Below, in pieces: positions 16,486 through 50,424 of a stretch of 64,000 nucleotides of DNA. The notes beneath the pieces are model-generated. The model worked only from the letters and a program-made list of their open reading frames with translations. It had not been told where the DNA came from and did not search any database. This DNA comes from an uncultured Dehalococcoidia bacterium (GTDB lineage: Bacteria; Chloroflexota; Dehalococcoidia; SZUA-161). The stretch covers positions 1,976 through 65,975 of the forward strand of contig CAYVQT010000006.1 in NCBI GenBank assembly GCA_964453665.1. Reading direction: 5' to 3'. The translations under genes were made by a program, and so were the position numbers. The stretch's first letter is position 1. Each line of letters opens with the position of its first letter.

Positions 16486-16489
16486 TCGA

Positions 16490-17164: not shown

Positions 17165-17224
17165 ACTCCAAGCTTCGGTGCCATTTTAAACCTGATGGCT
17201 ACGCTGGCACAAGGGCAAAGGTAT

Positions 17225-17255: not shown

Positions 17256-17267
17256 TTTAACCCCTCC

Positions 17268-32576: not shown

Positions 32577-32673
32577 CTCTTCGACAGGACTGCCCTGATT
32601 TTATTGCAGGGCTCAGGGCGAATTGTTCAGGTCCTATTTTAGGAGCAATGGCGAGGTTGAAGAGGTGGATGAT

Positions 32674-34008: not shown

Positions 34009-34032
34009 TAACCTGGTTTTGGAGCGCCGAGG

Positions 34033-35184: not shown

Positions 35185-35232
35185 AAAAGGGGATTCCCAT
35201 AAGGAAGGCAGTATCCGAAGGAGGGGCCGAAG

Positions 35233-36738
35233 GTGAAAACCTATCTGCCGCCAAAGTTTATAGTTGAGCGAGACCCTGAGCGCTGTATCCAGTGTCAGGT
35301 GTGTGTTGACCAGTGCAGTTTCGACACACATTACTACGATGCTGAGGACGACGAGGTTAGAAGCCGCGAGGGTAGCTGCGTCGGCTGCCATCGCTGTGTC
35401 CTCTTTTGTCCCACTAATGCCCTGAATGTAAGAGGCGTTCCACTGGACTACAGAGATAACTATAACTGGCGTCCCGAAATCATCGAGGACATCGTCAAGC
35501 AGGCCGAGACCGGAGGCGTCCTTCTTACGGGGATGGGCAACGACAAAGAGTATCGCGTCTATTGGGACCACCTGGTTCTTAACGCCAGCCAGGTAACCAA
35601 CCCGTCAATAGACCCGCTAAGAGAGCCGATGGAACTCACCACCTATATCGGTCGAAAACCAGACAGGGTCGATATAGACCCCGACTCCGTGAGCATTAAA
35701 ACGGAGCTTGCGCCGCAGGTCAGGATCGAGGTGCCGGTTATGTTCTCTGCTATGTCCTACGGCGCAGTGAGCTTGAATGTGCACGAGTCGCTGGCACGGG
35801 CAGCTACCGAGGCGCAGACGCTGTGGAACACCGGCGAGGGAGGACTCCATCCCAAGCTATATAAATACGGGGCTAACACAATCGTCCAGGTGGCATCAGG
35901 GCGGTTTGGTGTGCATGCGGACTACCTTGACGCAGCCAGAATAGTAGAGATAAAGATCGGTCAGGGGGCAAAACCCGGTATAGGGGGGCACCTTCCCGGC
36001 GAAAAAGTAAGCGCCGATGTTTCCTGGACCAGAATGATTCCGCAGGGTACAGACGCCTTATCACCTGCGCCGCAGCACGACATCTATTCCATCGAGGACC
36101 TGGCTCAGCTTGTACACGCTTTAAAAGAGGCCACTAACTATACCAAGCCGATATCAGTAAAGATAGCCGCTGTCCATAACTCGGCCGCTATTGCCAGCGG
36201 GATGGTACGAGCGGGGGCGGACATGATAGTGCTCGATGGTCTGCGGGGCTCAACCGGCGCTGCGCCCAAAATCATACGCGACAATGTCGGCATTCCCATC
36301 GAGATGGCTCTCGCCTCAGTAGATACCCGCTTGAGGCAGGAAGGCATCCGTAATCAGGCCTCCGTTGTGATTGCCGGGGGAATCAGGAACAGCGGAGATG
36401 TGGCCAAGGCGATCGCCCTCGGCGCCGATGCCGTATATATCGGGACAGCGGCTCTCGTCGCCCTGGGTTGCTGTCTCTGCCAGCAGTGCCACACAGGGAA
36501 GTGCGCCTGGGGTATATGCACAACCGATCTCAGGCTGACCAAGAGGATCAATCCTGACATCGGAGCCAGACGGCTGGCCAACCTGCTGCGCGGTTGGAAC
36601 CTGGAGCTAAAAGAAATACTGGGCGGTATGGGCGTCAACGCCCTTGAGAGCCTGAGAGGCAACCGCCTGCACTTGAGAGGGGTCGGACTGACGGATACGG
36701 AACTCGAAATCCTGGGAGTAAAAATGGCAGGTAGCTGA
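35233..36738 (+). CDS. Archaeal-type glutamate synthase, FMN/Fe-S (GltB domain 2) subunit with an N-terminal 2x[4Fe-4S] ferredoxin module
   Basis: CIQCQVCVDQC and CVGCHRCVLFCP form the ferredoxin module. EIKIGQGAKPGIGGHLPGEKV and the C-terminal CCLCQQCHTGKC are present. The GTG start follows GGAGGGG. Confidence 0.9.
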   Translation: MKTYLPPKFIVERDPERCIQCQVCVDQCSFDTHYYDAEDDEVRSREGSCVGCHRCVLFCPTNALNVRGVPLDYRDNYNWRPEIIEDIVKQAETGGVLLTGMGNDKEYRVYWDHLVLNASQVTNPSIDPLREPMELTTYIGRKPDRVDIDPDSVSIKTELAPQVRIEVPVMFSAMSYGAVSLNVHESLARAATEAQTLWNTGEGGLHPKLYKYGANTIVQVASGRFGVHADYLDAARIVEIKIGQGAKPGIGGHLPGEKVSADVSWTRMIPQGTDALSPAPQHDIYSIEDLAQLVHALKEATNYTKPISVKIAAVHNSAAIASGMVRAGADMIVLDGLRGSTGAAPKIIRDNVGIPIEMALASVDTRLRQEGIRNQASVVIAGGIRNSGDVAKAIALGADAVYIGTAALVALGCCLCQQCHTGKCAWGICTTDLRLTKRINPDIGARRLANLLRGWNLELKEILGGMGVNALESLRGNRLHLRGVGLTDTELEILGVKMAGS

Positions 36739-36739
36739 G

Positions 36740-37513
36740 ATGGCAGAGAACGTTTATCACGAAAACGCAAACCAGGCGGTTAAAATCGACGCCTATGGTG
36801 ACACTCACCGCGAGCTAAACGCCAAGCTGCGGGATGCAGTTTCGAATGGAACCCGGAGGATCGAGCTTCTGAACGTCTATGGGCAGAGATATATCGGAAC
36901 GGACCTGGACAGACCGGTGGATATCGAGATATTCGGTGTTCCCGGCAATGATCTGGGGGCTTTCATGAACGGGCCGAGGATTACTGTCCGCGGTAATGCC
37001 CAGGATGGCTGCGGAAACACTATGAATAACGGGGAGATAATAGTCCACGGTCATGCAGGGGACATCATCGGCCTCTCGGCCCGGGGAGGAAAGATCTTTG
37101 TCCGGGAAGATGTCGGCTACAGGGCCGCCATCCATATGAAGGAGTACCAGGACAAGAAGCCAGTGCTGGTCATCGGAGGCACCGCCCAGGACTTCTTCGG
37201 CGAATATATGGCGGGGGGAATCGTGATCCTGCTCGGCCTCAATCTGAAGGAAGGAGAACGCCACAAGGCCAGGTTCATCGGAACCGGGATGCACGGGGGG
37301 GTCATCTACCTGAGGGGCAGTGTAGATGATTTCCAGCTAGGCAAAGAGGTGGGCGTTGCCGAGCTGGAAGAGGATGACCGCCAGCTTGTCCGGCAATTCG
37401 TCAGCGAGTATGCGTCCCATTTCGATTGCGACGCCGAGGTGATACTGAAGAGCAATTTTATCAAGCTGTTCCCCCTTTACCTCAGACCTTACGGGAGACT
37501 CTACGCGTACTAA
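36740..37513 (+). CDS. Archaeal-type glutamate synthase, GXGXG (GltB domain 3 / FwdC-like) subunit
   Basis: It has repeated beta-helix GxGxG-type turns (GVPGNDLGAFMNG, VRGNAQDGCGNTMNNG, VHGHAGD). The start lies 1 nt after the upstream stop. Confidence 0.85.
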   Translation: MAENVYHENANQAVKIDAYGDTHRELNAKLRDAVSNGTRRIELLNVYGQRYIGTDLDRPVDIEIFGVPGNDLGAFMNGPRITVRGNAQDGCGNTMNNGEIIVHGHAGDIIGLSARGGKIFVREDVGYRAAIHMKEYQDKKPVLVIGGTAQDFFGEYMAGGIVILLGLNLKEGERHKARFIGTGMHGGVIYLRGSVDDFQLGKEVGVAELEEDDRQLVRQFVSEYASHFDCDAEVILKSNFIKLFPLYLRPYGRLYAY

Positions 37514-37657: not shown

Positions 37658-37687
37658 TTGCAAAATGAATTACGAATTTGATATACT
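37658..37687 (+). promoter_or_regulatory. Candidate internal promoter ahead of korD
   Basis: TTGCAA (37658-37663), an 18-nt spacer, then TATACT (37682-37687). A 7-bp stem-loop, CTGCACC/GGTGCAG (37707-37739), follows in the leader. Confidence 0.35.
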
Positions 37688-37822: not shown

Positions 37823-38089
37823 ATGAAGTTGTGGAGAACACCATTCGATCAGGCGGAAAAGGCCACCAGGCCAGCGAAAGTCCTGATCGACAAGGAAAGA
37901 TGCAAAGGATGCGGCTTCTGCGTGGAGTTCTGCCCGAGAGGGACGCTTGTGATGAGCGACGAACTGAGCTCCAAGGGCTATACTCTTGCTGCAGTAGCGG
38001 ACGAAAGCAAGTGCCTCGGCTGCGGCCTGTGTGATATCCTCTGCCCCGAATTCGCCATCCACCTGGTATTAAACAACAACGAAAGCTAG
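37823..38089 (+). CDS. korD: 2-oxoacid:ferredoxin oxidoreductase delta subunit (2x[4Fe-4S])
   Basis: CKGCGFCVEFCP and CLGCGLCDILCP are present. It is 88 aa and sits immediately upstream of the alpha subunit. Confidence 0.8.
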   Translation: MKLWRTPFDQAEKATRPAKVLIDKERCKGCGFCVEFCPRGTLVMSDELSSKGYTLAAVADESKCLGCGLCDILCPEFAIHLVLNNNES

Positions 38090-38101: not shown

Positions 38102-39253
38102 ATGTCTGAAGACGGAGTGCTCTGCGGAACGTTCTTTATGAACGGCGATGTGGCCTGCGCCGAAGGGGCTATCAGCGCGGGTTGTCGTTTCTTCGCCGGC
38201 TACCCCATCACGCCAGCCACAGAGGTGGCCGAGAGAATGAGTGAACGACTCCCTCACGTGGGAGGTATCTATATCCAGATGGAGGATGAGATCGCCTCTA
38301 TGAATGCCATACTGGGTGCATCCTGGGCGGGGAAGAAAGCAATGACATCCACCTCCGGCCCCGGATTCAGCCTGATGATGGAGAATCTAGGCCTGGGAGT
38401 GATGCTGGAAACACCCTGCGTCCTGGTCAATATACAACGGGCCGGCCCGTCTACCGGGTTGCCCACGCTGGCGGCCCAGGGGGACATGATGCAAGCGCGA
38501 TGGGGCTCACACGGCAGCTACGAGATTATCGCCCTTGCACCCAGCTCTCCGCAGGAGATATTCGATTTTACTATTACAGCGTTTAACCTTTCGGAGAGAT
38601 ATCGGGTTCCTGTGCTGGTGATGTCCGACGAAGCCGTAGGTCATATGAGCGAGAAGGTTGTGATACCTCGCATAGCACCCGAAGAGCTTGTAAGCAGGCG
38701 ACGCCCGGAAGTAGCGCCGGAGGAATATCTGCCCTACAAAGCCGACGGGGATCTAGTTCCACCTATGGCTATAGCCGGCGAAGGTTACCGCTTCCACGTC
38801 ACCGGCCTTACCCACGATGAGAGGGGTTACCCTATAATGACCGCAGAGGTCCAGGACCAGCTTGTGCGCCGTCTGGTGGATAAAATCAGGCTCAACAGGA
38901 AAGACATAATAAGCTATGAAGAGATAGGGATTGAAGATGCAGAAGTCATAGTCTGCGCCTACGGAATTACCGCGCGCGTCGCCCGTCTCGCAGTGCAACA
39001 GGCACGCGATGCAGGAATTCGAGCGGGTATGCTGCGGCTGATAACAGTCTGGCCATTTGCCGAAGACCGCATCAGAGAGCTAGCGGAGCAGGTCAAGGCA
39101 TTCGTGGTCCCCGAGATAAACTACGGCCAGATTGTACTAGAGGTCGAGAGATGTACAGCAGGAAAGGCCAGTACGCTACTCGTGCCCCATATGGGAGGCG
39201 GCGTGCACCATCCACTGACCATCCTGAAAGCCATAAAGGAAGCAGTGCAATGA
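38102..39253 (+). CDS. korA: 2-oxoacid (probably 2-oxoglutarate):ferredoxin oxidoreductase alpha subunit
   Basis: NGDVACAEGAISAGCRFFAGYPITPATE and TSGPGFSLM are present. The substrate assignment rests on architecture and context only. Confidence 0.85.
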   Translation: MSEDGVLCGTFFMNGDVACAEGAISAGCRFFAGYPITPATEVAERMSERLPHVGGIYIQMEDEIASMNAILGASWAGKKAMTSTSGPGFSLMMENLGLGVMLETPCVLVNIQRAGPSTGLPTLAAQGDMMQARWGSHGSYEIIALAPSSPQEIFDFTITAFNLSERYRVPVLVMSDEAVGHMSEKVVIPRIAPEELVSRRRPEVAPEEYLPYKADGDLVPPMAIAGEGYRFHVTGLTHDERGYPIMTAEVQDQLVRRLVDKIRLNRKDIISYEEIGIEDAEVIVCAYGITARVARLAVQQARDAGIRAGMLRLITVWPFAEDRIRELAEQVKAFVVPEINYGQIVLEVERCTAGKASTLLVPHMGGGVHHPLTILKAIKEAVQ

Positions 39254-40098
39254 CAACTCCAATAACAGAAGAGGAAAATAAATTTAACTCCCTGATACGG
39301 TTAGATAGGATGCCGCACATCTGGTGTGCAGGCTGCGGTATAGGGCCAGCAGTGGGGTGCTTCATCAGGGCTATAGAGAGTTCCGGGCTGGATCCGGATA
39401 AAATAGCGCTGATTTCAGGGATAGGCTGTGCCGGCAGGGCGGCTGGTTATGTCAAGCTGGATTCCTTCCACACCACGCACGGTCGCGCCCTTCCTTTCGC
39501 CACTGGCTTGAAGGTGGGAAATCCCGACTTGAACGTGGTGGTCTTCTCCGGAGATGGTGACCTGGTAGCCATAGGCGGTAATCACCTCATACACTCGGCG
39601 CGCCGTAATATTGATATAACTGTCATCTGCATAAACAATTTCAATTACGGCATGACCGGCGGGCAGATGGGGCCTACTACTCCCCTCGACGCCCGAAGCA
39701 CCACCACACCCTACGGCAACGTCGAGTATCCCTTCAACGTACCGTACCTGGTAGCCGCAAGCGGCGCTACCTACGTTGCCCGCTGGACTGTGCTGCACGC
39801 GCGTCAACTGGAGTGGTCCATTACTGAGGCCTTGATCAAACCGGGATTCAGCTTCATTGAGGTGCTCGCTCCCTGCCCAACGCTATATGGACGCATGAAC
39901 AAGGAACCACAGGGGATGAACACGATGCACTCATACCAGGAAAGAAGCGTAGTTAAAGACGGGGCCGATCCCAAGGATGTGGCCATTAATTACGACGGCC
40001 AAATTGTTGTTGGCAAGTTCATTGACACTGAGCGCCAGACCTTCGGGGACCAATGCAAGCTGGTGCTTGATAGGGCAAAGGAGAAGAAAAAAGGATAG
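39250..40098 (+). CDS. korB: 2-oxoacid:ferredoxin oxidoreductase beta (TPP-binding) subunit
   Basis: WCAGCG, GIGCAGR and FSGDGDLVAIGGNHLIHSARRN (TPP motif) are present. The ATG at 39250 overlaps the korA stop (ATGA). Confidence 0.9.
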   Translation: MTTPITEEENKFNSLIRLDRMPHIWCAGCGIGPAVGCFIRAIESSGLDPDKIALISGIGCAGRAAGYVKLDSFHTTHGRALPFATGLKVGNPDLNVVVFSGDGDLVAIGGNHLIHSARRNIDITVICINNFNYGMTGGQMGPTTPLDARSTTTPYGNVEYPFNVPYLVAASGATYVARWTVLHARQLEWSITEALIKPGFSFIEVLAPCPTLYGRMNKEPQGMNTMHSYQERSVVKDGADPKDVAINYDGQIVVGKFIDTERQTFGDQCKLVLDRAKEKKKG

Positions 40099-40149: not shown

Positions 40150-40713
40150 TTGGGTATAAAAGAGATAAGAATAGCAGGTTTCGGCGGACAGGGAGTGGTC
40201 CTATCCGGGCTGATACTCGGGCAGGCTGCATCCATATATGATGATGGTTTCTCCGCTCTTACACAGAGCTACGGGCCAGAGGCCCGCGGTGGCTCATGTA
40301 CAACAGAGATAGTGATATCTGATGAGCCTATAGGTTATCCATACGTGCAGAGTCCTAATATACTCATCGTCCTATCACAGGAAGCCTACAACAAGTACTG
40401 TAACGATCTGCCCGCAGGGGCCCTGATGATCATAGACCCGGACCTGGTGAAACACGACCAGTCACAAAACCCGGCACCACTCTCCATACCAGCTACCAGA
40501 ATGGCGCGGGATATGGGGCGGGCAGTGGTCGCTAACATTATAATGCTGGGGTTCCTGGCAGCAGTGAGTGACCTGGTTTCTCCCGAGGCTCTCAAGAAGT
40601 CAGTACTAACGTCTGTCCCCAAGGGAACCGAGGAATTCAATACCCGAGCTTTCGAAACGGGATACAACTACGGACTGGAACACAGCGGCAAAGGCAAGGT
40701 TACAGATGGCTAG
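40150..40713 (+). CDS. korC: 2-oxoacid:ferredoxin oxidoreductase gamma subunit
   Basis: IRIAGFGGQGVVLSGLILGQAA...SYGPEARGG is present. Confidence 0.85.
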   Translation: MGIKEIRIAGFGGQGVVLSGLILGQAASIYDDGFSALTQSYGPEARGGSCTTEIVISDEPIGYPYVQSPNILIVLSQEAYNKYCNDLPAGALMIIDPDLVKHDQSQNPAPLSIPATRMARDMGRAVVANIIMLGFLAAVSDLVSPEALKKSVLTSVPKGTEEFNTRAFETGYNYGLEHSGKGKVTDG

Positions 40714-43700
40714 GGGAATCGCGGTAATAGGTGATGGTGCGGGCGCGGCACAGGCAGCCCTCACACTGACAGAGCTGGGTGTAGAGGTCAAGCTAATCAT
40801 GTCCTCTCAGGCACTGAGCTTAGACAATGTCACTGACAGCGCCTCAGTCACTGCCCCGGAGAAACTATGTAGCGTGTGGCCCCTGCTACTGCGTGCGGCG
40901 AGCCACCCACTGGTTACCCTTCATACCAACTCCAGGGTCAGGGCCATAGCCGGCAAACAGGGCAAATTCACGGTAAGGCTAACCACATACCCTCGCTATG
41001 TGCAAGCGGATTTATGCACGGCCTGCGGCCGCTGCGAGGAGGCGTGCTCGGTACAGGTACCATTCATCCTGGACGGCCGAAAGGTAACCCGGAGTGCCAT
41101 CCACGCACCCGTTCCAGGTAAAAAAACGATACCCTCAGCCTACTATATAGAGAAAAGCGGGGTCGCACCCTGTCGGGCGTCATGCCCACTCGGTATAAAT
41201 GTTCAAGGATTTGTATCGCTGCTGTCTAAGGGCAAGGTGGATGAGGCTCTAAGCCTTATAAACGAAGTGGCGCCTCTCGCTGGAGTGCTCGGACGCGTAT
41301 GCACCCATCCCTGCGAGGATAATTGCAAACGCAGTGAAGTTGACAGCCCTGTATTCATCCCAGCCCTACATCGCTATGCTGCTGACAATGCACCCAGCGG
41401 CATCAACTATAAACGTAAGGCCCCTGCCAGGTCCCGCAAGGAAAAAATTGCTATCGTCGGAAGCGGCCCCGCCGGGCTTGCCGCCGCCTGGGAACTGGCA
41501 CGCCGCGGTTATGGACCCACCATATTCGAATCCCATGCGGTGGTAGGTGGTATGGTGGCTACAGGTATTCCCAGATTCCGTCTGCCCCTCGAGGTCCGGG
41601 AGAGAGAAGTGGCGGCGATCAAAGACCTGGGTGTGGATATAATGACCGGGGTGATGGTAGGCCGCGATGTGACAATTTCCGATCTGAGAGAACGGGGATA
41701 CCGAGCTTTCTTCCTGGCCATAGGCGCCCACCAGAATAGGGGTCTGGGCATCCCGGGTGAAGAACTCGAAGGCGTAGTGGACGCCATCTCCCTGCTGTTC
41801 GCACTGAACCTGAAAGTGGGCGCCTCAGTAGGCTCCAATGTGGTAGTCATTGGCGGCGGCAACAGCGCCGTGGATTCCGCCAGAACCGCCAAGAGGCGGA
41901 GCAAGGGAGTTGTGCGTATACTCTACCGCCGCACAATGGAAGAGATGACCGCAGTAGCAGACGAGGTGCAGGAGGCAATAAACGAAGGCATATCTATTGA
42001 ATATCTAACAAATCCGCTGGAGATTCTGGGCGATGGAACCAAGGTAACCGGAATACGCTGCCAGCGGATGAAAATGGGCGATATGGGAGAGGATGGCCGC
42101 CGCAGGCCCGAGCCTATACCGGGCTCGGAGTTCGTGATCGACGCGGACCACGTGGTGATAGCTATAGGACAGCGGCCCAACACCTCAATGCTCAACATCA
42201 GGTGGCTTGAGATCGATAGCGACGACTCTACTATAAAAGTGGACCCTTTAACACTCGAGACCAGGATTCCTGGCATCTTTTCCGGTGGCGATTGTGTCAC
42301 AGGCCCCAACAACGTCGTCGAAGCTGTTGCCGCCGGACTGCGAGCCGCAGAGTCAATAGACCGGTATTTAAGAGGACGCGATTTGAGGAAGGGACGCAGT
42401 CTGGAGAAACCTCAAACTGTTGAGGTCGATATCAGGGAAAGAGATGCTGCCTACTACAAGCGAGCCCGTATGCCCGCTATCCCGCCTTATAAGAGGATGG
42501 GTAAATTTGAGGAAATAGCCCTGGGATTACCATTAGACGTAGGGAGACGCGAGGCCGAGCGCTGCCTCAACTGTGCCTTATGCAGTGAATGCATGGAATG
42601 TGAACAGGTGTGCGAACTGGGGGCGGTTCTCCACAAGGACAGGGAGGAGCACGTAGATATCGGAGCCGAACTCATAATCAATTTTGCCTCGGACGACGGT
42701 GAAAGTGAATACTACCTCGAGGTGCCTGAAACCGCCCAGAGCATTGCCACGCAGACCCCGAGACCGGGTGTCTATACAGTGGAGTTATTCGAAGGCCACA
42801 GCCTGCAAAGCGAGCTCGCACAGGCCTCCGCTACAGCCCTTGAAGCCGCCGCTGAACTCAGGCTCAAAGAGGGAGCCATACCCGCAGCTCAGGATAACCC
42901 AGATGGCTCAGATGACCATTCGGACCATAATCTTTGGAAGGCAGAAGCCGTCAGTACCGACAAAGCGCGCATCGGTGTTTTCCTGTGTCGCTGCGGTGGC
43001 AGCATTAACTCAGTGATTGATTTCAATCAAGTGACCAATGAACTCTTACAACTTCCCGGCCTCTGCACCGTTCAGGAGACAGCGCAGGCGTGCAGCGAGG
43101 AGGGAGCGAACAGGATGGCGGCCCGAGCTGCGGAGTGGAAGCTTGACAAGATGGTGCTTGCCGCCTGCCGATGCTGCGGGCTGGATCAGATATGCTTCAG
43201 CTGCACCGACAGGCGAGTGATGTGCCAGCAGAACCTTGGCAATTACATCGCCACATACCTGGGAAGCAATGTGGAGTTCGTAAATATACGTGAGCAATGC
43301 GCTCTAGTTCACGAAGATGACCCCGCTGGCGCTACACGCAAGGCAATAGACATAATTTCGGCGGGCGTCGCCCGGTCCAAAAAAGCCTCTGCTGTTACCC
43401 GCGAGGAGCGTCCTCTGACTGGAGGTGCGCTAATACTGGGTGCAGGGATTCGAGGGCTTGCAGCAGCAAAGAACCTGGCCTCCCAAATTTATTCCGTAAC
43501 AGTGATTGCCGGCCCCGAAGCAGACACTGCCGGAGAATCGCAGCGCTCCGAATACCTGGAAAACAGAGAGAGCCTACTTAAACAGCTCGATGAGCAGGGT
43601 ATCACTGTCAGGCCGTGGCCTCAGAACCTGGAACTGGACGGCTCGCCGGGCAATTACAATGCTGTGCTGAATGACGGCTCACAGAACAGCCAGGTTGAAG

Positions 43701-44233
43701 CTGGAGCGATAATACTGGACATCGGGAAGATGCAAGGGGAAGTCCCCCCAGAAGTCATCACCAAACCGGGAAAAAGCCGCCTCGGCCGCATATTTACCCG
43801 AAGGATCGGCTCCAAAGGCCTGGAGGATATGCAATTCGCCATCAAGGATACTGCAGGTATATTCGTCATGTATCCGGATGAAGAAGACACACCGTGGGAA
43901 CAGGTCCTTAAGGGAGCGTCTATGGCGGCTAGAGCGTCAGGTTATCTGTACCGGGGTAGCCTTAGCCCAATGTCCAACGCAGTTAGCATCGACAGCAAAC
44001 TATGTCGCGGCTGCGGCGACTGTGCGGCCGTATGCTCTTACATAGAGATGAGAGAATCCGGCAATGGTACAGCTTGCGCCTATGTCGACCGGGCGTTGTG
44101 CCTCGGCTGTGGAGTTTGTATCGCACACTGTCCCACAGGTGCCATAACTCAAGCTTTCCAGAGCGACGCAAACCTAAGCTCCACGCTTGAAGCGTTGCTG
44201 GGAAAGACATCCTATATGGTTGAAGTGGCATGA
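40706..44233 (+). CDS. 1175-aa mosaic flavo-iron-sulfur protein. It combines HdrA-like segments, a GltD/NfnB-like NAD(P)H:FAD module, an HdrA N-domain-like Cys module and a C-terminal 2x[4Fe-4S] ferredoxin.
   Basis: The motifs, in order, are:
- IAVIGDGAGAAQAAL
- CTACGRCEEAC
- CRASCPLGINV...GRVCTHPCEDNC (GltD N-terminus)
- IAIVGSGPAGLAAAWELARRG and VVVIGGGNSAVDSA
- CLNCALCSECMECEQVC
- RIGVFLCRCGGSIN...FVNIREQCALVH (HdrA N-domain-like)
- ILGAGIRGLAAA
- CRGCGDCAAVC and CLGCGVCIAHCP
The start overlaps the korC stop by 8 nt. Confidence 0.8.
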   Translation: MARGIAVIGDGAGAAQAALTLTELGVEVKLIMSSQALSLDNVTDSASVTAPEKLCSVWPLLLRAASHPLVTLHTNSRVRAIAGKQGKFTVRLTTYPRYVQADLCTACGRCEEACSVQVPFILDGRKVTRSAIHAPVPGKKTIPSAYYIEKSGVAPCRASCPLGINVQGFVSLLSKGKVDEALSLINEVAPLAGVLGRVCTHPCEDNCKRSEVDSPVFIPALHRYAADNAPSGINYKRKAPARSRKEKIAIVGSGPAGLAAAWELARRGYGPTIFESHAVVGGMVATGIPRFRLPLEVREREVAAIKDLGVDIMTGVMVGRDVTISDLRERGYRAFFLAIGAHQNRGLGIPGEELEGVVDAISLLFALNLKVGASVGSNVVVIGGGNSAVDSARTAKRRSKGVVRILYRRTMEEMTAVADEVQEAINEGISIEYLTNPLEILGDGTKVTGIRCQRMKMGDMGEDGRRRPEPIPGSEFVIDADHVVIAIGQRPNTSMLNIRWLEIDSDDSTIKVDPLTLETRIPGIFSGGDCVTGPNNVVEAVAAGLRAAESIDRYLRGRDLRKGRSLEKPQTVEVDIRERDAAYYKRARMPAIPPYKRMGKFEEIALGLPLDVGRREAERCLNCALCSECMECEQVCELGAVLHKDREEHVDIGAELIINFASDDGESEYYLEVPETAQSIATQTPRPGVYTVELFEGHSLQSELAQASATALEAAAELRLKEGAIPAAQDNPDGSDDHSDHNLWKAEAVSTDKARIGVFLCRCGGSINSVIDFNQVTNELLQLPGLCTVQETAQACSEEGANRMAARAAEWKLDKMVLAACRCCGLDQICFSCTDRRVMCQQNLGNYIATYLGSNVEFVNIREQCALVHEDDPAGATRKAIDIISAGVARSKKASAVTREERPLTGGALILGAGIRGLAAAKNLASQIYSVTVIAGPEADTAGESQRSEYLENRESLLKQLDEQGITVRPWPQNLELDGSPGNYNAVLNDGSQNSQVEAGAIILDIGKMQGEVPPEVITKPGKSRLGRIFTRRIGSKGLEDMQFAIKDTAGIFVMYPDEEDTPWEQVLKGASMAARASGYLYRGSLSPMSNAVSIDSKLCRGCGDCAAVCSYIEMRESGNGTACAYVDRALCLGCGVCIAHCPTGAITQAFQSDANLSSTLEALLGKTSYMVEVA

Positions 44234-44643
44234 GCGAGTCAGCGATACATTTAGTCGTGTTCGCCTGCAACTGGGATGGCCTCAGTTGCCTGGAAGAGGC
44301 AGCCAGAGGGGGATTAGGCTACCCTGCCTCTGTGAGGGTAGTCAGGGTAAGCTGTCTCTCACGGTTGCATCAAGGCCTTATGCTCAAGGCCTTTGAACTG
44401 GGTGCGGATGGTGTAATGCTTCTGGGATGTGAACCGGGCAACTGCCAGTATGACATCGATGCCGGACTTATTACGCAAGAGTTCGAAAAAGCGCAGACAG
44501 TATTAAAGCTGCTTGGGCTGGGAGAAGAAAGACTGGTCCTCTGTCAGACAGCTCGCGGGGATGGGCCAGGATTTGTAAGGCGGGTAACAGACTTTGCCAA
44601 AGAGATCGAGCAGATGCAACCTGCCGTCACCGCTGGAGCCTAG
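44230..44643 (+). CDS. mvhD: MvhD/FlpD-like [2Fe-2S] protein
   Basis: VVFACNWDGLSCLEEAA...VRVVRVSCLSRL...GADGVMLLGCEPGNCQY is present. There is an ATGA overlap with the upstream gene. Confidence 0.85.
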   Translation: MSESAIHLVVFACNWDGLSCLEEAARGGLGYPASVRVVRVSCLSRLHQGLMLKAFELGADGVMLLGCEPGNCQYDIDAGLITQEFEKAQTVLKLLGLGEERLVLCQTARGDGPGFVRRVTDFAKEIEQMQPAVTAGA

Positions 44644-44717: not shown

Positions 44718-45863
44718 GTGTTCAATACTGAACGAGAGATAAGTGAAAGCAAGATACGCCTCTGCCTTGACTGCGGCAAGTGCACGGTGGTATGTCCGGT
44801 CGCCCAGAACGACCCGGCATTCAACCCGCGTCTCATAGCACAGAGAAGGTTATCGCAAAATAAACACAGTCCGCAGGACGAGACAATCTGGGAATGCCTC
44901 AGTTGCTACATGTGCGTTGAACGCTGCAACTACCGTGTGGATTTTCCCGCATTTATTCACAGTCTGAGAGCCGAGGCGCTCACTGAAGGCGCTGAATTGC
45001 AGTGCAGCCACGGCGGAACGCTCCAGGCGCTCCAGCACCTGATGGCGCGTGAAGACCTGCAGCAGGACCGACTGAACTGGCTCCCGCAGGACATTGAACT
45101 GTCTGAACAAAACGACGTAATATTCTTTGTAGGCTGTGCTCCCTATTTTGATACCGTGTTCAGCGATCTGGAAGTGAACACCCTCGGCGGTGTAGAAGGT
45201 GCGCTAAGGCTGCTTAACCGCGCCCAGGTGCCCTTTAACATTCTTGCCAATGAACGCTGCTGCGGGAGAGACCTGCTGCTCCAAGGCGATCGAGAAGGAT
45301 TTCTGGCTCTGGCGAAAGCCAATATGCGCGAGTTCAGTAAACACGGCGTCAGCAAGATTATCACTAACTGTCCTGAATGCTACCATACGCTGAAGGTTGA
45401 ATACCCCGATATGCTGGGGGCTACGGGTATCCAGGTAATGCATCTGACAGAGGTTATAGCACCGCTCGTTCAAAGCGGAGACCTTAGTCTCGGCGAACTT
45501 GAGCAAAGGGTCACATATCACGATCCCTGCACGCTGGGCAGATGCTCCAGGATATTCGATGAGCCCCGCCAGATTCTACGGGCTGTATCAGGACTAGACA
45601 TAGTAGAGATGGAGCAGAACCGTGAGAAGGCGCTGTGCTGCGGTGCAAGCCCCTGGGTGCACTGCGGTGCGGTGAACCGGCAGATACAGGAGCAGCGCCT
45701 CGCCCAGGCTGCGGCCACTGGGGCAGATATACTTGTGACCGCATGCCCCAAGTGCCAGATACATCTGAGGTGCGCCCAAAAAAGTCACGATGGTAAAATT
45801 CCCCAGGTCGAGATCCAGGACATAGCATTTCTGGCAGCCCGGGCTCTGGATAGTAGGAGGTGA
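44718..45863 (+). CDS. HdrC-HdrB fusion (HdrD-like soluble CCG-domain Fe-S protein)
   Basis: The N-terminal CLDCGKCTVVCP and CLSCYMCVERC form the HdrC-like part. Two CCG boxes follow (ERCCGRD; ALCCGAS) with flanking Cys residues (VGCAPYF, HDPCTLGR, CPKCQ). Confidence 0.8.
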   Translation: MFNTEREISESKIRLCLDCGKCTVVCPVAQNDPAFNPRLIAQRRLSQNKHSPQDETIWECLSCYMCVERCNYRVDFPAFIHSLRAEALTEGAELQCSHGGTLQALQHLMAREDLQQDRLNWLPQDIELSEQNDVIFFVGCAPYFDTVFSDLEVNTLGGVEGALRLLNRAQVPFNILANERCCGRDLLLQGDREGFLALAKANMREFSKHGVSKIITNCPECYHTLKVEYPDMLGATGIQVMHLTEVIAPLVQSGDLSLGELEQRVTYHDPCTLGRCSRIFDEPRQILRAVSGLDIVEMEQNREKALCCGASPWVHCGAVNRQIQEQRLAQAAATGADILVTACPKCQIHLRCAQKSHDGKIPQVEIQDIAFLAARALDSRR

Positions 45864-48334
45864 GTTGGTTGGCTGAAGAGGAACTGAGAATAGGCGTATT
45901 TGTATGCGATTGTGGACTCAACATAGCAGGGTCGGTTGACACGGAGGAGGTGCGGGAAGCAGCAGAAAAGCTGCCCGATGTCGTGGTCTCGGTGAGAAAT
46001 AAATATACCTGCGCCGACCCCGGGCAGGAAGAGATAAAGAGGCACATACGCGAATATAATCTGAACCGCGTGGTGGTGGCCTCCTGTACCCCCCTGCTCC
46101 ATGAGTCAACCTTCCGCAACTGCGTGGCAGAGGCCGGGCTTAACCCTTACCTCTTTTCGATGGCCAGCATCAGGGAGCATTGCAGCTGGGTACACCTCCA
46201 CGACCGTGAGGCCGCCACCAGGAAGGCTAAAGATATCGTTAAGATGGCAGTAGCCCGCGCTCGCTTACTCGAAGCCCAGAAGGAGATGGAGATACCAGTC
46301 ACCGATGCCGCTCTGGTGATCGGCGGTGGGGTGGCTGGAATTCAGGCAGCCCTGGACCTGGCCGATGCCGGGCACCAGGTATACCTGGTGGAAAAGGAGC
46401 CCTCTATCGGGGGCATAATGGCGCAACTGGACAAGACATTCCCAACCATGGACTGTTCGATATGTGTGCTCGGGCCCAAGATGATGGACGTGGACCGCCA
46501 CCCTCTAATCGAACTACTCGCCTACAGCGAAGTCGAGGCGGTTTCAGGCTACGTCGGCAATTTCAAGGTACGTGTGCGCAGAAAAGCACGATATGTGAAC
46601 GAGGACGATTGCACCGCCTGCGGCGACTGCGCTGAGGTCTGCCCGGTGGTATTGCCCGATGAGTTTCAGCAGGGCTTTTCCTCGCGCAAAGCAGCTTACA
46701 TACCGCTACCTCAAGCAGTGCCCCCAGCCTATCTTATCGATATGGAGCACTGCCTGGGTAATAACCCCATAGCCTGTGACAAGTGCCTTAAAGCCTGCGA
46801 GAAGCAATGTATCGACCTGAATATGCATGACCGGATAGTTGAATTGGATGTAGGCACTATAATCGTGTCTACGGGCATGGGGATATACGACCCCACTCCA
46901 CTTGACGAGTACGGTTACACGCGCTTTGAAAATGTTATCACCAGCATGGAGTTTGAACGGTTGATATGCGGCGGTGGACCCACCGACGGACATCTGGTGC
47001 GCCCCTCTGACCACCGGACACCGGCGCGCATCGGCTTCATCCAGTGCGTTGGCTCCAGGACAGAGAACCGCGGCAATCCCTATTGCTCCAACGTTTGCTG
47101 TATGAATACGGTGAAGGACAGCCTGCTTATAAAAGAGCATCACCCAGACGCAGAGATCTATGTCTTCTACATGGACATCCGAGCCTTCGGCAAAGGCTTC
47201 GAAGATTTATTCCGGCGTTCCAAGGAGGAGGACGTTCACTACATCCGCGGCCTGCCCGGTGAAATTACCGAAGACCCTGTTACAAAAAACCTGCGCATCA
47301 AAGTAGAAAACACCACCGCAGCGCGTGTAGAGGAATACGAGCTGGACCTGGTGATCCTGTCGTTAGGCCTGGAGCCCAAGGCTGACCTGAAGCAGCTAGC
47401 CAACATGCTGAATATCTCCCAGACCAGCGATGGCTTCGTAATGGAGGCTCATCCCAAGCTGAGGCCGGTGGATGCGCCCACGCCGGGTATCTTCTTCGCC
47501 GGCTGTGTGGAGGCACCCAAAGACGTAAAGGACAGCGTAACCCAGGCCGGGGCGGCAGCCGCCAGAAGCTCAATTATACTGAACTCAGAGATCCTCAAAA
47601 TGGAGGCCCTCAAGGCAGTAATAGACCTTGACAAATGCACGTCCTGCGGCGTCTGCGCCAAGGTCTGCCCCTACGGGGCGATCAAGGTAGATATTAAGGC
47701 CAAGACAGGCGCGCAGGTGGTGGCCGCGGCATGTGCCGGCTGCGGCACCTGCGCTGCGGAGTGCCGCTTTGACGCCATAACCATGCAGCACTTCAGCGAT
47801 GCACAGATACTGACCCAGATAGACGCCGCTCTGGAGGAAGAGCCTGAGAAGAAGATCATAAGCTTCCTGTGTAACTGGTGCAGCTATGCGGGAGGTGATC
47901 TGGCGGGGGTCTCGAGGCTGCAGTATCCGCCCAACAACCGATTCATCCGCACCATGTGCAGCGGAAGAGTGGACGAGAAGTTCATCCTCCACGCCTTCGA
48001 GAAAGGAGCTCCCCTGGTGCTTCTCTCGGGATGCCACATAAATGACTGCCACTACATCAGCGCCAACCACTGGACCAAGCGCCGCGCAGAGAAGCTATGG
48101 AAGCGCCTGGAAAAGCTCGGAATCCGGCAGGAACGCCTACAACTGCAATGGGTCAGCGCCGCCGAGGGCCCCAGGTTCGCCCAGCTAATGCGCGATTTGG
48201 AGGAGATGCGGCAGCAGGTCACGCCCGAGGAGATAGAGCACACCAAGCAGGTGCTTGCCGAGCAGAGGCTGGCGAAGGCAAAGGAAGAGGAGGAGGAGGC
48301 GGAATCTCTCGAACCACAGGTTGAAGCAGCATAA
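45860..48334 (+). CDS. hdrA: HdrA-MvhD fusion (heterodisulfide-reductase A-like flavoprotein with a C-terminal MvhD domain)
   Basis: IGVFVCDCGLNIAG, ALVIGGGVAGIQAALDLADAG, GGIMAQLDKTFPTMDCSICVLGPKM, CTACGDCAEVCP and CTSCGVCAKVCP are present. The C-terminal MvhD part is ISFLCNWCSYAGGDLAG...LLSGCHINDCHY. The GTG start overlaps the upstream TGA; the alternative TTG at 45869 sits 8 nt after AGGAGG. Confidence 0.9.
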   Translation: MSWLAEEELRIGVFVCDCGLNIAGSVDTEEVREAAEKLPDVVVSVRNKYTCADPGQEEIKRHIREYNLNRVVVASCTPLLHESTFRNCVAEAGLNPYLFSMASIREHCSWVHLHDREAATRKAKDIVKMAVARARLLEAQKEMEIPVTDAALVIGGGVAGIQAALDLADAGHQVYLVEKEPSIGGIMAQLDKTFPTMDCSICVLGPKMMDVDRHPLIELLAYSEVEAVSGYVGNFKVRVRRKARYVNEDDCTACGDCAEVCPVVLPDEFQQGFSSRKAAYIPLPQAVPPAYLIDMEHCLGNNPIACDKCLKACEKQCIDLNMHDRIVELDVGTIIVSTGMGIYDPTPLDEYGYTRFENVITSMEFERLICGGGPTDGHLVRPSDHRTPARIGFIQCVGSRTENRGNPYCSNVCCMNTVKDSLLIKEHHPDAEIYVFYMDIRAFGKGFEDLFRRSKEEDVHYIRGLPGEITEDPVTKNLRIKVENTTAARVEEYELDLVILSLGLEPKADLKQLANMLNISQTSDGFVMEAHPKLRPVDAPTPGIFFAGCVEAPKDVKDSVTQAGAAAARSSIILNSEILKMEALKAVIDLDKCTSCGVCAKVCPYGAIKVDIKAKTGAQVVAAACAGCGTCAAECRFDAITMQHFSDAQILTQIDAALEEEPEKKIISFLCNWCSYAGGDLAGVSRLQYPPNNRFIRTMCSGRVDEKFILHAFEKGAPLVLLSGCHINDCHYISANHWTKRRAEKLWKRLEKLGIRQERLQLQWVSAAEGPRFAQLMRDLEEMRQQVTPEEIEHTKQVLAEQRLAKAKEEEEEAESLEPQVEAA

Positions 48335-48448
48335 CGCCACGATTAGATAATTCCAATAGATACACAGGATGGGTGCAGTAAGGCGGAACCCACCGAATCA
48401 TCTCCAAATTAGGAGCGTGCTGTTTCACTATGCATGCCTTACCTCCAC

Positions 48449-48478
48449 TTGACACCCTCTCTCACTAGAAGCTATAAT
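48449..48478 (+). promoter_or_regulatory. Near-consensus sigma-70-type promoter for rpsU
   Basis: TTGACA (48449-48454), an 18-nt spacer, then TATAAT (48473-48478). Confidence 0.6.
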
Positions 48479-48527
48479 CAAGGGGTTCTGTGAATAAAGA
48501 AAGGGCTGTAAAGGGGGTGTTTTGTGA

Positions 48528-48710
48528 GTGACTGAAGTATGGGTTGGAGATAACGAGCCTTTTGAGATCGCGCTGAAGCGATTTAATAAAAAAGTCCAAC
48601 AAGATGGCGTCCTTTCCGAGGCTCGGCGCAGGGAACACTTCGAGAAGCCGAGTATTAAGCGTAAGAAGAAAGAGGCTACCAAAAGGCGGAAGAGTTCCAG
48701 AAGTTCCTGA
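48528..48710 (+). CDS. rpsU: 30S ribosomal protein S21
   Basis: [37 protein letters not shown] is present. It has a GTG start. Confidence 0.9.
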
Positions 48711-48749
48711 ACAGCATCGATAGCGCAGGTAAATGTCGGGAAAGAGAAG

Positions 48750-49202
48750 ATGTTGCAAGAGAAATTGATTGCTGACCTCAGGCACGCTATGAAGAGTGGC
48801 GACAAGAAACGCGTCGAAGTGCTCCGGATGGTGAGAGCAAATATCAAGAACGCCGAGATAGCGCAGCAGAAAAGCCTGGATGATCCTGATGTTCTCGGAG
48901 TAATCACCAAGGAGGTCAAGCAGCATCGAGAGAGCATCACCGAGTTCAAAAAGGGTAACCGGCAGGATTTAGTCGACAAGGAGGAAGCGGAGCTAGATAT
49001 ATTACTCGAGTACCTGCCGGAGCAAGTATCCCGTGATGAGATCGTCGCTGCTGCCCGACAGGTGATCGAGGAGGTGGGAGCACGAGGGGCCGGGGATAAG
49101 GGCAAGGTCATGCAGAAGCTCATACCTCAACTTAAGGGTAAGGCCGAAGGGCGCGAGATAAACGAGGTGGTAACCGAGCTACTTAGCGGCTCGACAGGAT
49201 AA
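48750..49202 (+). CDS. yqeY: GatB/YqeY-domain protein
   Basis: LIADLRHAMKSGDKKRVEVLRMVRANIKNAEI is typical of YqeY, and the gene follows rpsU as in many bacteria. Confidence 0.85.
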   Translation: MLQEKLIADLRHAMKSGDKKRVEVLRMVRANIKNAEIAQQKSLDDPDVLGVITKEVKQHRESITEFKKGNRQDLVDKEEAELDILLEYLPEQVSRDEIVAAARQVIEEVGARGAGDKGKVMQKLIPQLKGKAEGREINEVVTELLSGSTG

Positions 49203-49559: not shown

Positions 49560-50279
49560 ATGAGATTCGGCGTTATCATCTTTCCCGGCACCTGGAGTGA
49601 CAGGGACTGTCATTATGTGCTGGATAAGGTTCTGGGGCAGAAGGTAGAATATATATGGCATAAGGACACCGACCTGTCAGGGTTCGATTGTATTATCCTC
49701 CCCGGGGGCTTCTCCTACGGCGACTATCTACGCCCCGGCGCCATCGGGCGCTTCTCGCCGGTGATGACTGCGGTGCATAATTTCGCTATGGCAGGCAAGC
49801 TGGTGCTCGGTATCTGCAACGGCTTTCAGATACTTTGCGAGTCCGGCCTCCTGCCCGGAGCCCTGATACGAAACAACCACCTCCAGTATAGATGTCAGTG
49901 GACCTACCTGCGAACAGAGAACGCCTCCCTGCCCTTCACCTCACGAGCTAAGAAAGGACAGGTGCTTCACATACCCATCTCACATCACGAGGGCAGCTAC
50001 TACGCCGACGAAGACACCTTGAAAGGACTTGAAGCCAATAACCAGGTTGTCTTCCGCTACTGCACTGCGACAGGCGAGATAACAGAGGCAGCTAGCCCCG
50101 ACGGCTCCCTGAACAATATCGCCGGCATTGTCAACAAAGCGGGAAATGTCCTGGGTATGATGCCATATCCCGAGAGGGCGTGCGAGGAGATCGTCGGCGG
50201 CCTGGACGGCAAAGTAATTTTCAAGTCCATTATCGAAGAAGTTACAACCAGAGCGATGGGCTGCATAAAAACTCCCTAG
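49560..50279 (+). CDS. purQ: Phosphoribosylformylglycinamidine synthase I (glutaminase subunit)
   Basis: [27 protein letters not shown] (catalytic Cys) and MPYPER are present. Confidence 0.92.
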
Positions 50280-50282
50280 CCC

Positions 50283-50311
50283 TTGACATAATAGAACACC
50301 TGTGCTAGAAT
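50283..50311 (+). promoter_or_regulatory. Candidate promoter ahead of purL
   Basis: TTGACA (50283-50288), a 17-nt spacer, then TAGAAT (50306-50311). A leader of about 110 nt follows. Confidence 0.5.
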
Positions 50312-50424
50312 TCCCGTGAATAAGCTCTGTCTAAAAAATAATAGTATTTAAAATACTTGAATACCCGGCTAAATAATAGCTCGGGGGCGGGTTCCTAAAG
50401 TGATAAGGAATTAAAGGAAACAAC

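Follow-up and report, generated by a model that had tools for sequence, protein, structure and literature searches.

What does a protein do that carries a complete GltD/NfnB-type FAD/NAD(P)H module amid segments of the heterodisulfide reductase subunit HdrA? The question is raised by a gene in a 64,000-nucleotide stretch of DNA from an uncultured Dehalococcoidia bacterium (contig CAYVQT010000006.1 of assembly GCA_964453665.1), the whole of which we call the window. Positions 40706-44233 of its plus strand hold one open reading frame (ORF), running from ATG to stop without internal stops and encoding 1175 aa. A preliminary description of this DNA had taken the product for one HdrA paralogue whose flavin domain was replaced or interrupted by a GltD-type domain, giving an Hdr complex a port for the entry or exit of NAD(P)H. 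The port remains the best-supported function, and so does the mosaic, in that HdrA-derived segments flank a complete GltD/NfnB module. What does not stand is the single interrupted HdrA. In this protein two HdrA-like units stand in tandem; it is collinear with an HdrL protein of about 1475 aa, and very probably a reduced member of the HdrL family.

The HdrA-GltD/NfnB mosaic as an NAD(P)H port was published in 2009, 2018 and 2022, so this part of the description is not new. HdrL-type proteins have been annotated since 2009, and a role has been ascribed to them case by case in sulfate reducers, syntrophs, sulfur disproportionators and anaerobic methanotrophic (ANME) archaea. For the reduced subfamily we found no description in the searchable literature. 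In its members the HdrA-like units are flavin-stripped, a Cys insert goes together with these losses, the proximal-cluster position is occupied by His or Lys, and the gene is obligatorily linked to those for a 2-oxoacid:ferredoxin oxidoreductase (OFOR), HdrD and HdrA2. Our analysis contributes an anatomical model of the HdrL family, in which a permuted GltD is grafted onto a tandem HdrA pseudo-dimer. With the parts for bifurcation removed and the through-going Fe-S path kept, the subfamily would be a natural dissection of the HdrA wire from the bifurcation hardware.

Architecture of the 1175-residue protein

The order of the parts is best read from a long HdrL. L076, from an uncultured Desulfobacterium sp. 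(not strain HRM2 itself), has about 1475 aa and, judged by its sequence, is the "HdrL" of Strittmatter et al. (2009). It consists of two complete HdrA units in tandem, the first being without the N-terminal Cys domain and without a C-terminal ferredoxin domain, and carrying a GltD module between both CxxCxxCxxxC motifs of its inserted-ferredoxin domain. In a MAFFT alignment the window protein is collinear with L076 from the first residue to the last, with 36% identity over 1131 positions. The common order is the start of an HdrA thioredoxin-reductase-like (TrxR-like) domain, ferredoxin motif, GltD module, ferredoxin motif, the rest of the TrxR-like domain, N-terminal Cys domain, second TrxR-like domain and C-terminal ferredoxin. 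In both, HdrA-derived domains and a GltD-type NAD(P)H module share one polypeptide, and mvhD comes next downstream; for the long form, too, a link to NAD(P)H has been suggested. The GltD module thus lies inside the inserted-ferredoxin domain, between C104-C114 and C626-C636, and does not take the place of a flavin domain as had been supposed.

Three differences separate the two proteins in the alignment. About 200 aa are gone after residue ~660 (the second TrxR-like subdomain of unit 1, with its CSSVCC motif), about 190 aa are gone after residue ~1007 (the same part of unit 2, with a CSRICC motif), and an extra Cys-rich stretch, CRCCGLDQICFSCTDRRVMC, occupies residues 821-840. Compared with long HdrL, the window protein is without some 200 aa in each TrxR-like domain, including the CSxxCC cluster motifs. 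The FAD fingerprints of HdrA are no longer conserved and the Cys/Sec197 motif is missing; a CxCCx5CxxC insert has been acquired, the residue at the proximal-cluster position is His rather than Lys, and the gene sits between those of an OFOR and those of HdrD and HdrA2. Because of the two deletions and the decayed fingerprints, which leave no complete TrxR-like flavin domain of the long form, we file it as a reduced variant. Both features are common to the whole subfamily.

Two observations on the L076 locus may be recorded here. Within its 9974-14404 there is an in-frame TGA (selenocysteine, Sec) at ~10170-10190, exactly at the HdrA Cys197 position (...TNDCAM*IISPK...), and a second tandem-HdrA gene plus mvhD lies at ~15337-18749.

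That the flanks are homologous to HdrA, as the preliminary description held, is borne out by BLASTP and by matches to HdrA in the Protein Data Bank (PDB). Against the neighbouring 824-aa HdrA, residues 7-149 pair with HdrA 153-294 (36% identity, E 6e-20), residues 744-931 with HdrA 3-177 (31%, E 7e-23) and residues 1065-1165 with HdrA 558-658 (E 7e-11); residues 685-730 match 540-589, weakly but collinearly. In the solved HdrA structures (5odc, 9sfi), residues 6-157 correspond to HdrA 147-297 (the TrxR-like start and the first inserted-ferredoxin cluster motif), residues 753-931 to HdrA 3-169 (the N-terminal Cys domain and a Rossmann start), and residues ~1060-1165 to HdrA 545-649 (the TrxR-like end together with the C-terminal ferredoxin domain). 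For unit 2 the matches cover residues 4-176 of 9sfi and 3-169 of 5odc, at a whole-sequence E-value of about 1e-30. NCBIfam HdrA models match three separate stretches of the protein. The HdrA2 model gives E 3.5e-75 at 253.6 bits, short of its cut-off of 1100 bits, and the other HdrA models give 171-181 bits, under cut-offs of 1300-1400.

The same architecture recurs in many genomes. Among 5.8 billion proteins searched, at least 120 clusters have 98-100% query coverage and 53-100% identity, nearly all being 1150-1190 aa long; where organism names are present, as in a few cases, they are Chloroflexota or Dehalococcoidia proteins from metagenome-assembled genomes (MAGs). We aligned 77 of these full-length homologues (alignment A1), to which the conservation counts below refer. 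In A1 the Cys flanking every domain junction are invariant, as are C104, C107, C110 and C114 of the first half of the inserted-ferredoxin domain and all eight Cys of the C-terminal ferredoxin domain. The second inserted-ferredoxin motif, C626-C636, has its equivalent in long HdrL, directly before the return to the TrxR-like domain. The N-terminal Cys domain of unit 2 contributes C761, C763, C796, C821 and C865. The reduced subfamily is also large in Desulfobacterota, where at least 120 clusters share 55-100% identity with the L019 protein; Chloroflexota, Anaerolineae and Desulfobacterota all have the reduced form. A survey of one genome per species, which is a sample and not a census and in which generic GSGPAGL matches predominate, has among the matches listed full-length relatives in Desulfobacterota, Clostridia, Actinomycetota, Bacteroidales, Anaerolineae and Chloroflexia. 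Many of these relatives are ~1450-1540 aa long.

As an aside, L015 (390-5740) encodes OFOR delta-alpha-beta-gamma and then, in a still more reduced arrangement, a stop-to-stop ORF of 789 aa that combines a GltD module with a C-terminal ferredoxin and an MvhD domain, and in which no HdrA N-terminal or TrxR-like parts are detectable.

The centre of the window protein is GltD/NfnB-like by Pfam, NCBIfam, PDB sequence and Foldseek matches alike. Pfam places Fer4_20 at residues 153-229 (E 1e-15) and Pyr_redox_2 at residues 247-544 (E 1e-35), besides a Fer4 pair at the C-terminus of the protein, and residues 150-654 match the GltD-like NCBIfam model PRK12771 with 461 bits (E 6e-138). From these sequence and fold matches we predict the FAD site, NADPH site and two [4Fe-4S] sites of an NfnB-like GltD fold. 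The Fer4_20 domain, which would hold both clusters, has C156, C160, C199, C203, C207 and H222; the FAD Rossmann motif GSGPAG lies at 252-257; and the NADPH Rossmann motif GGGNSAVD (383-390) is followed by LYRRT. This GGGNSAVD...LYRRT pattern, common to the NADPH-binding StnC/NfnABC modules, suggests a preference for NADPH. As a GltD proper the module scores poorly, with 203 bits for TIGR01317 (cut-off 448) and 260 bits for TIGR01318 (cut-off 483).

Which of the known modules does it resemble most? The best PDB sequence matches are NfnABC (9bov_A, 361 bits; 9n5u_A, 329) and StnC (8oh5_C, 313), followed by Thermotoga maritima NfnB (4ylf_B, 293 bits), Pyrococcus furiosus NfnI (263) and GltD (204); Foldseek gives TM scores of 0.71-0.74, normalised to NfnB and NfnI. 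Moreover, it shows a circular permutation. What is the N-terminal element in NfnB and GltD (a helix and EAxRCLxC) stands here behind the module, at 585-623, and a de-permuted construct joining 585-623 to 152-234 aligns unbroken to T. maritima NfnB 12-122 (E 3e-18). In StnC, NfnABC and 9n5u both pieces map ~400 residues apart, as they do in the window protein. The permutation thus assigns C620 and C623 to the GltD clusters, and C626, C629, C632 and C636 to the second inserted-ferredoxin motif.

At the position of the FAD-proximal cluster ligand, Glu in bifurcating NfnB and in StnC a strictly conserved Lys170, the window protein has His222, invariant in the 77 homologues. Other HdrL lineages, reduced and long, have Lys there, and Glu occurs in 2 GltD-motif proteins of a 395-protein set, described below. 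Arg292, the equivalent of NfnB Arg187, is invariant in A1. One further protein, a contig-truncated HdrA-GltD protein of a Desulfobacterales (L005, ~10571) that keeps the TrxR part behind the GltD module, has His at the proximal-cluster position; since other forms outside Dehalococcoidia have Lys, His and Lys do not strictly follow phylum or length class.

The full-length AlphaFold2 model has a mean predicted local distance difference test score (pLDDT) of 65.9 and a predicted TM score (pTM) of 0.46, with all Fe-S regions below 50 in pLDDT. It supports the folding of the GltD module and of both trimmed Rossmann-like subdomains, whose retained half-domains reach pLDDT ~80-90. A Foldseek search of the PDB with this multidomain model returned only GltD/NfnB/DPD-type matches, and for the HdrA parts it gained nothing beyond the sequence searches.

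HdrA flavin sites and the Cys insert

Can the two HdrA-like units still bind flavin? Every one of the 76 ungapped rows of A1 (one row is gapped) keeps G9 of unit 1, but at position 11, where GxGxxG has its second Gly, 38 of the 77 homologues have Ser and 26 Gly; in most of them the motif has become GxSxGA. Unit 1 has neither an acidic residue at the end of beta2 nor a GG motif. In unit 2 the motif is GAGIRG in the window, GAELCS in L001, GWGKAA in L008, GDSEAS in L019 and GQSEAA in L083, and such variability among relatives implies that it is not under selection. Both units have lost the region corresponding to about HdrA 335-540, which fills the gap between the still alignable HdrA stretches; it should contain Lys409, which in HdrA hydrogen-bonds to flavin N5 (PMC6405883).

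Set against HdrA, the motifs of the FAD site (GxGxxG, GG and the Lys409 region), that of the [4Fe-4S] cluster of the TrxR domain and the conserved Cys197 are lost or no longer conserved, or fall into the deleted region. The HdrA stretch GGxMAQLDKTFPTxDCSxC is missing, as had been noticed before, and is replaced by SLDNVTDSASVTAPEKLCSVW; C55 aligns with HdrA Cys197, in a column that is Leu in 53 of the 77 homologues. The "degenerate HdrA segments" of the preliminary description are apt as far as the FAD fingerprints go, and the degeneracy consists as well of two separate ~200-aa deletions, one per TrxR-like domain. In the HdrA structure, the Fe-S parts that are kept here flank the FAD, on the ferredoxin-output side and on the MvhD-input side, and the lost TrxR-domain cluster is the one that leads to HdrBC (PMC9012536).

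The Cys insert, which adds four to five Cys to the N-terminal domain, is absent from HdrA and from long HdrL, and present in all OFOR-linked reduced forms examined. We took a motif census of the 395-protein set, in which carriers of the GltD fingerprint were scored rather than all members, and which is biased, two of the source searches having been seeded with reduced forms. CxCCx5CxxC was found in 267 proteins of 1000-1250 aa, and none of the 267 has the Cys197 motif or the CSxxCC motif. Among the 19 proteins with at least 1400 aa, 17 are the opposite, in that they lack the insert and have the Cys197 motif once and the CSxxCC motif twice. Even in this biased sample, the mutual exclusivity looks nearly complete. 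We infer that the insert gives the N-domain cluster its missing ligand, and/or binds an extra cluster that bridges the flavin gap; the AlphaFold model, with pLDDT <50 for residues 825-836, does not inform this part. A different reading of the insert, as a compressed CCG motif ("CC(G/N)...CxxC"), was rejected, the spacing being 5 and not ~35 residues and no Pfam CCG match being found.

Proposed electron path and rival readings

In the window, eight closely spaced genes share one strand (Table 1), and that of HdrL is number five, behind OFOR delta, alpha, beta and gamma, and in front of an MvhD-like protein, an HdrD-like protein and a complete HdrA2 with a fused MvhD domain. Four junctions of the cluster have overlapping start and stop codons, the mvhD ATG for example overlapping the HdrL stop codon (ATGA), and the next gene downstream is convergent. 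The ATG at 39250 is probably the start of OFOR beta, from start choice and homologue length. The eight-gene order is complete in the window, in L001, L002, L003 and L085 (Chloroflexota or metagenome contigs), in L019 (a Desulfobacteraceae MAG), and in L083 and L084 (Desulfonema ishimotonii and D. limicola), and the partial loci L008, L013 and L086 are consistent with it. Long HdrLs are followed by mvhD, and OFOR genes are not adjacent to them. Neighbours can also be fused, HdrL to MvhD in P0062, P0082 and P0103, and MvhD to the HdrD-like protein in Desulfonema (L083 12695-14278, 527 aa; L084 10917-12536, 539 aa). In D. limicola two small genes, DUF4160 and DUF2442, stand between hdrL and the MvhD-HdrD fusion gene.

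We propose that the 1175-aa protein no longer bifurcates and would be a linear NADPH-to-Fe-S wire with seven or eight Fe-S clusters. Electrons would run from NADPH to the GltD FAD, the two GltD [4Fe-4S] clusters and the two inserted-ferredoxin [4Fe-4S] clusters, and on through the N-domain cluster(s) and the two C-terminal [4Fe-4S] clusters to the [2Fe-2S] cluster of MvhD. At the N-domain step the new Cys insert would replace the lost Cys197 ligand and/or bridge the place of the lost flavin. MvhD would then deliver to the adjacent complete HdrA2-MvhD, the holder of the bifurcating flavin, from which the HdrD-like CCG protein would form the high-potential thiol/disulfide branch, and the four-subunit OFOR, or ferredoxin, the low-potential branch. 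The net reaction would be reversible:

2 NADPH + disulfide + acyl-CoA + CO2 <-> 2 NADP+ + dithiol + 2-oxoacid + CoA

The textbook midpoint potentials balance, two times -320 mV (NADPH) being about equal to the sum of -500 mV (acyl-CoA/2-oxoacid) and -140 mV (heterodisulfide). A linear wire of this kind would fill the role that MvhAG hydrogenase or FlxABC has elsewhere, as the electron-input (or output) module of an HdrA core.

That the protein is an NADPH-input wire for the neighbouring Hdr core we regard as probable; for a direct coupling to the OFOR we are inclined to some doubt. We consider rather unlikely the most far-reaching version, in which all eight genes encode one supercomplex, the flavin-less HdrA pseudo-dimer hard-wires NADPH to HdrA2/HdrD, the OFOR is docked in place of free ferredoxin, and the insert binds a new Fe-S cluster at the vacated flavin position. 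If it were true, NADPH oxidation and disulfide reduction would directly drive the reductive carboxylation of acyl-CoA, or the reverse, without a soluble ferredoxin pool. In any case, the strict linkage to OFOR and HdrA2/HdrD suggests an undescribed coupling of NADPH, thiol/disulfide and 2-oxoacid/acyl-CoA chemistry at ferredoxin potential. The host groups, Dehalococcoidia and Desulfobacterota, are abundant in anoxic sediments, and the presence of the cluster in cultured Desulfonema species makes the hypothesis experimentally accessible.

Could the GltD/NfnB-like flavin itself be the site of bifurcation, sending one electron to ferredoxin or the OFOR and the other to the Hdr branch, so that the cluster has two bifurcation sites? 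Such a two-site idea is already published for ANME-1 HdrA9-11, the module has 41% identity to T. maritima NfnB with a TM score of 0.74, and Arg292 is invariant. On the other hand, the Glu ligand of NfnB is here the His222, or Lys in other lineages, StnC and NfnABC score higher than NfnB and share the permutation, no NfnA/PyrK-like gene is in the cluster, and a complete HdrA2 is always encoded alongside. By its best PDB matches, its permutation and its His/Lys ligand position, the module appears to resemble the non-bifurcating StnC/NfnABC type. In StnC, which keeps the Arg, the GltD-like flavin is experimentally non-bifurcating, and NADPH electrons pass linearly to a separate bifurcating module (PMC10482914). 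We therefore find a bifurcating GltD flavin unlikely.

The conserved OFOR genes invite another reading, that the chief role of the protein is to reduce NAD(P)+ as a subunit of the upstream OFOR, which would make a direct 2-oxoacid:NAD(P)+ oxidoreductase, with the Hdr genes separate or accessory. OFOR delta-alpha-beta-gamma is immediately upstream in every reduced-form locus with enough flank, the gamma gene overlaps the HdrL start, and L015 pairs an OFOR with only a GltD module and ferredoxin-MvhD protein. An analogue is presumably the GltD-like subunit of phenylglyoxylate:NAD+ oxidoreductase (PadEFGHI); the NCBIfam matches to PadG and PadE in the window are weak only. But MvhD, HdrD-like and HdrA2 genes are likewise downstream in every locus with enough flank, fusions tie HdrL to MvhD and MvhD to HdrD, and a simple NAD(P)+ reductase would need neither seven or eight Fe-S clusters nor an HdrA scaffold. 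We judge this reading as improbable as the previous one.

Far less probable is that the protein serves as the NADPH-donating small subunit (GltD) of the split glutamate synthase (GOGAT) encoded at 34033-37513. GltB-type genes (GATase_2, Fer4 plus FMN, GXGXG) do lie 3-6 kb upstream on the same strand, and the protein centre matches GltD models, but GOGAT genes are not in the flanks of the homologous loci, every GltD and gltA NCBIfam score is below its cut-off, and a separate Pyr_redox_2/Rubredoxin_C reductase gene comes directly before the GOGAT genes; on these three grounds we rejected the small-subunit identity. Finally, an assembly chimera or decaying pseudogene joining gltD and hdrA fragments, for which only the mosaic look and the degenerate motifs speak, is effectively refuted by the same full-length architecture at 53-100% identity in hundreds of independent assemblies, the invariant Cys on either side of each junction, the occurrence of the gene in closed genomes of cultured Desulfonema, the steady GC content along the ORF (0.55-0.57) and the lack of internal stops.

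Several points weigh against the wire into the Hdr core that we prefer. We found no purified or biochemically characterised HdrL in the searchable literature. With its pTM and its low confidence at the Fe-S sites, the AlphaFold2 model leaves cluster distances and domain packing unreadable. Unit 2 of the window protein may still bind FAD, its GAGIRG being intact. The GltD flavin may bifurcate, given that Arg292, the equivalent of the Arg that contacts N5 of the bifurcating flavin in NfnB, is invariant. Because the inserted-ferredoxin domain is the ferredoxin exit in HdrA, the GltD graft could be an electron sink. The MvhD-HdrD fusions mean that HdrL could feed HdrD directly, without HdrA2; and co-transcription of the cluster is read from gene spacing only. 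A promoter and terminator scan of 37.3-49.3 kb gave counts on a par with those of shuffled sequence, and a weak promoter candidate at 37658-37687, upstream of OFOR delta, is not used as evidence.

Known systems, coordinates and neighbouring genes

The two halves of the architecture are known separately from ANME archaea. ANME-1 HdrA9-11 have an NfnB-like insertion of ~500 aa in the HdrA inserted-ferredoxin domain (Chadwick 2022, PMC9012536), the same insertion site as here, and ANME HdrA3/4 are fused tandem HdrAs that self-dimerise (PMC9012536); the idea behind the latter, of a fused HdrA pair that acts as a heterodimer by itself and whose halves have lost complementary domains, applies to the window protein as well. 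As described for ANME, insertion and tandem fusion belong to separate proteins; the window protein combines them. The N-domain is on the N-terminal unit in HdrA3/4 and on the C-terminal unit here, and the FAD-contact residues, decayed here, are kept by all ANME HdrAs (PMC9012536). The HdrA9-11 type is also found in single-HdrA proteins with a GltD insertion that keep the N-terminal Cys domain (L011 and L014, ~9995-13372), from a Desulfobacteraceae MAG and an Actinomycetota MAG, which means that this architecture is not confined to archaea.

StnC (8oh5) and NfnABC (9bov, 9n5u), like the window protein, have a host Fe-S domain that encloses a GltD-like NADPH/FAD module. The module has two [4Fe-4S] clusters, the same circular permutation, with its EAxRCLxC element C-terminal, and a proximal-cluster ligand other than Glu. 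In StnABC the StnC module is a linear NADPH input to a separate bifurcating module. The hosts and partners differ. In StnC and NfnABC the host is NuoG/FdhF-like and the partner HydBC-like, whereas the window has an HdrA-like pseudo-dimer host and MvhD, HdrA2 and HdrD as partners, without HydBC-like genes among the Pfam-scanned neighbours; and StnC has its Lys ligand where the window protein has His. NfnB (T. maritima 4ylf/4yry; P. furiosus NfnI, 5jca) is alike in its fold, in the Arg near flavin N5 and in an NADPH Rossmann motif followed by YRR. It is unpermuted, however, has a Glu ligand on the proximal cluster, and works with NfnA, whereas no NfnA (PyrK-like, [2Fe-2S] plus FAD) is among the genes Pfam-scanned over 32.6-59.7 kb.

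MvhAGD-HdrABC and FlxABCD-HdrABC follow the same logic of a donor module, an MvhD-like [2Fe-2S] protein, a bifurcating HdrA, and a CCG disulfide reductase with a low-potential acceptor. The donor in the window differs in being an HdrA-derived Fe-S scaffold with a GltD-type NADPH site, not a hydrogenase or the Flx NADH dehydrogenase, and the likeness to these input modules is one of function and not of homology. Another system to compare is the HdrAL/POR cluster Sfum_0012-0018 of Syntrophobacter fumaroxidans, with HdrA/HdrL-type proteins and pyruvate:ferredoxin oxidoreductase, which was named without dissection and not detected in the proteome (PMC5947623). It is probably the same cluster type as that in the window, by description only.

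Table 1. Segments and motifs of the HdrL-type protein, its gene cluster and the glutamate synthase genes, in window positions.
Feature	Residues	Position	Strand	Basis
Whole gene, very probably a reduced HdrL-type protein, 1175 aa	1-1175	40706..44233	+	ORF, homologues, collinearity with long HdrL
Unit 1, first half of HdrA TrxR-like FAD subdomain	1-95	40706..40990	+	aligns with 5odc 147-240
Inserted-ferredoxin domain, first half	96-150	40991..41155	+	aligns with 5odc 241-297
GltD/NfnB-like module	151-584	41156..42457	+	Pfam, NCBIfam, PDB, Foldseek
Transposed GltD N-terminal element, helix and EAERC620LNC623	585-625	42458..42580	+	de-permuted alignment
Inserted-ferredoxin second CxxCxxCxxxC, C626/C629/C632/C636		42581..42625	+	invariant Cys (A1)
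Unit 1 TrxR-like remnant	641-720	42626..42865	+	MAFFT with L076, L007; weak BLAST
Unit 2 HdrA N-terminal Cys domain	753-900	42962..43405	+	PDB HdrA, BLASTP 31%
Subfamily Cys-rich insert, C821-R-C823-C824-x5-C830-x2-C833 ... C840		43166..43225	+	alignments, census
Unit 2 reduced TrxR-like domain, GAGIRG present	901-1090	43406..43975	+	alignments, pLDDT ~80-90
HdrA-type C-terminal 2x[4Fe-4S] ferredoxin	1091-1175	43976..44233	+	Pfam Fer4; 5odc 545-649
Motif IAVIGDGAGAAQAAL	5-19			translation
Motif CTACGRCEEAC	104-114			translation
Motif CRASCPLG	156-163			translation
Motif GRVCTHPCEDNC	196-207			translation
Motif IAIVGSGPAGLAAAWELARRG	248-268			translation
Motif GIPRFRLP	287-294			translation
Motif VVVIGGGNSAVDSA	379-392			translation
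Motif CLNCALCSECMECEQVC	620-636			translation
Motif RIGVFLCRCGGSIN	755 onward			translation
Motif ILGAGIRGLAAA	910-921			translation
Two CxxCxxCxxxC motifs	1100-1110 and 1132-1142			translation
OFOR delta, 2x[4Fe-4S] ferredoxin-like		37823..38089	+	NCBIfam best OGOR_delta, OorD, both below cut-off
OFOR alpha		38102..39253	+	Pfam POR_N, PFOR_II; PRK08659 581 bits (cut-off 411)
OFOR beta, thiamine pyrophosphate (TPP)-binding		39250..40098	+	Pfam TPP_enzyme_C
OFOR gamma, 8-nt overlap with HdrL start		40150..40713	+	Pfam POR
MvhD-like [2Fe-2S] protein		44230..44643	+	Pfam FlpD 6e-31
HdrD-like protein, HdrC-HdrB fusion		44718..45863	+	Pfam; two CxxCxxCxxxC, two complete CCG motifs
Complete HdrA2-type HdrA fused to MvhD domain		45860..48334	+	HdrA2 1189 bits (cut-off 1100), Pfam
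Pyr_redox_2/Rubredoxin_C reductase gene		32623-34008	+	precedes glutamate synthase genes
GATase_2 protein		34033-35184	+	glutamate synthase part
Fer4 and FMN/Glu_synthase domain protein		35233-36738	+	glutamate synthase part
GXGXG protein		36740-37513	+	glutamate synthase part

The motifs in Table 1 are those of the preliminary description, all of which were found in the translation in the order it had claimed.

Some neighbouring features of the window deserve a brief record. The split glutamate synthase genes (32623-37513, plus strand) are of archaeal type and lie directly upstream of the Kor-like OFOR; they are absent from the flanks of the homologous HdrL loci examined. Behind the eight-gene cluster, a perfect sigma-70 consensus (48449-48478, plus strand; TTGACA, 18 nt, TATAAT, 12/12 matches) is placed inside a 231-aa minus-strand ORF (48428-49123) without a Pfam match, and upstream of purQ-like and purL-like genes at 49560-52626. 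Further along, 53261-56692 (plus strand) holds a DnaB helicase gene, a DnaB_2/DnaD-like gene and an ORF of 492 aa whose two AAA+ modules are of DnaA ATPase type and IstB/DnaC-like, a candidate for an unusual tandem helicase loader.

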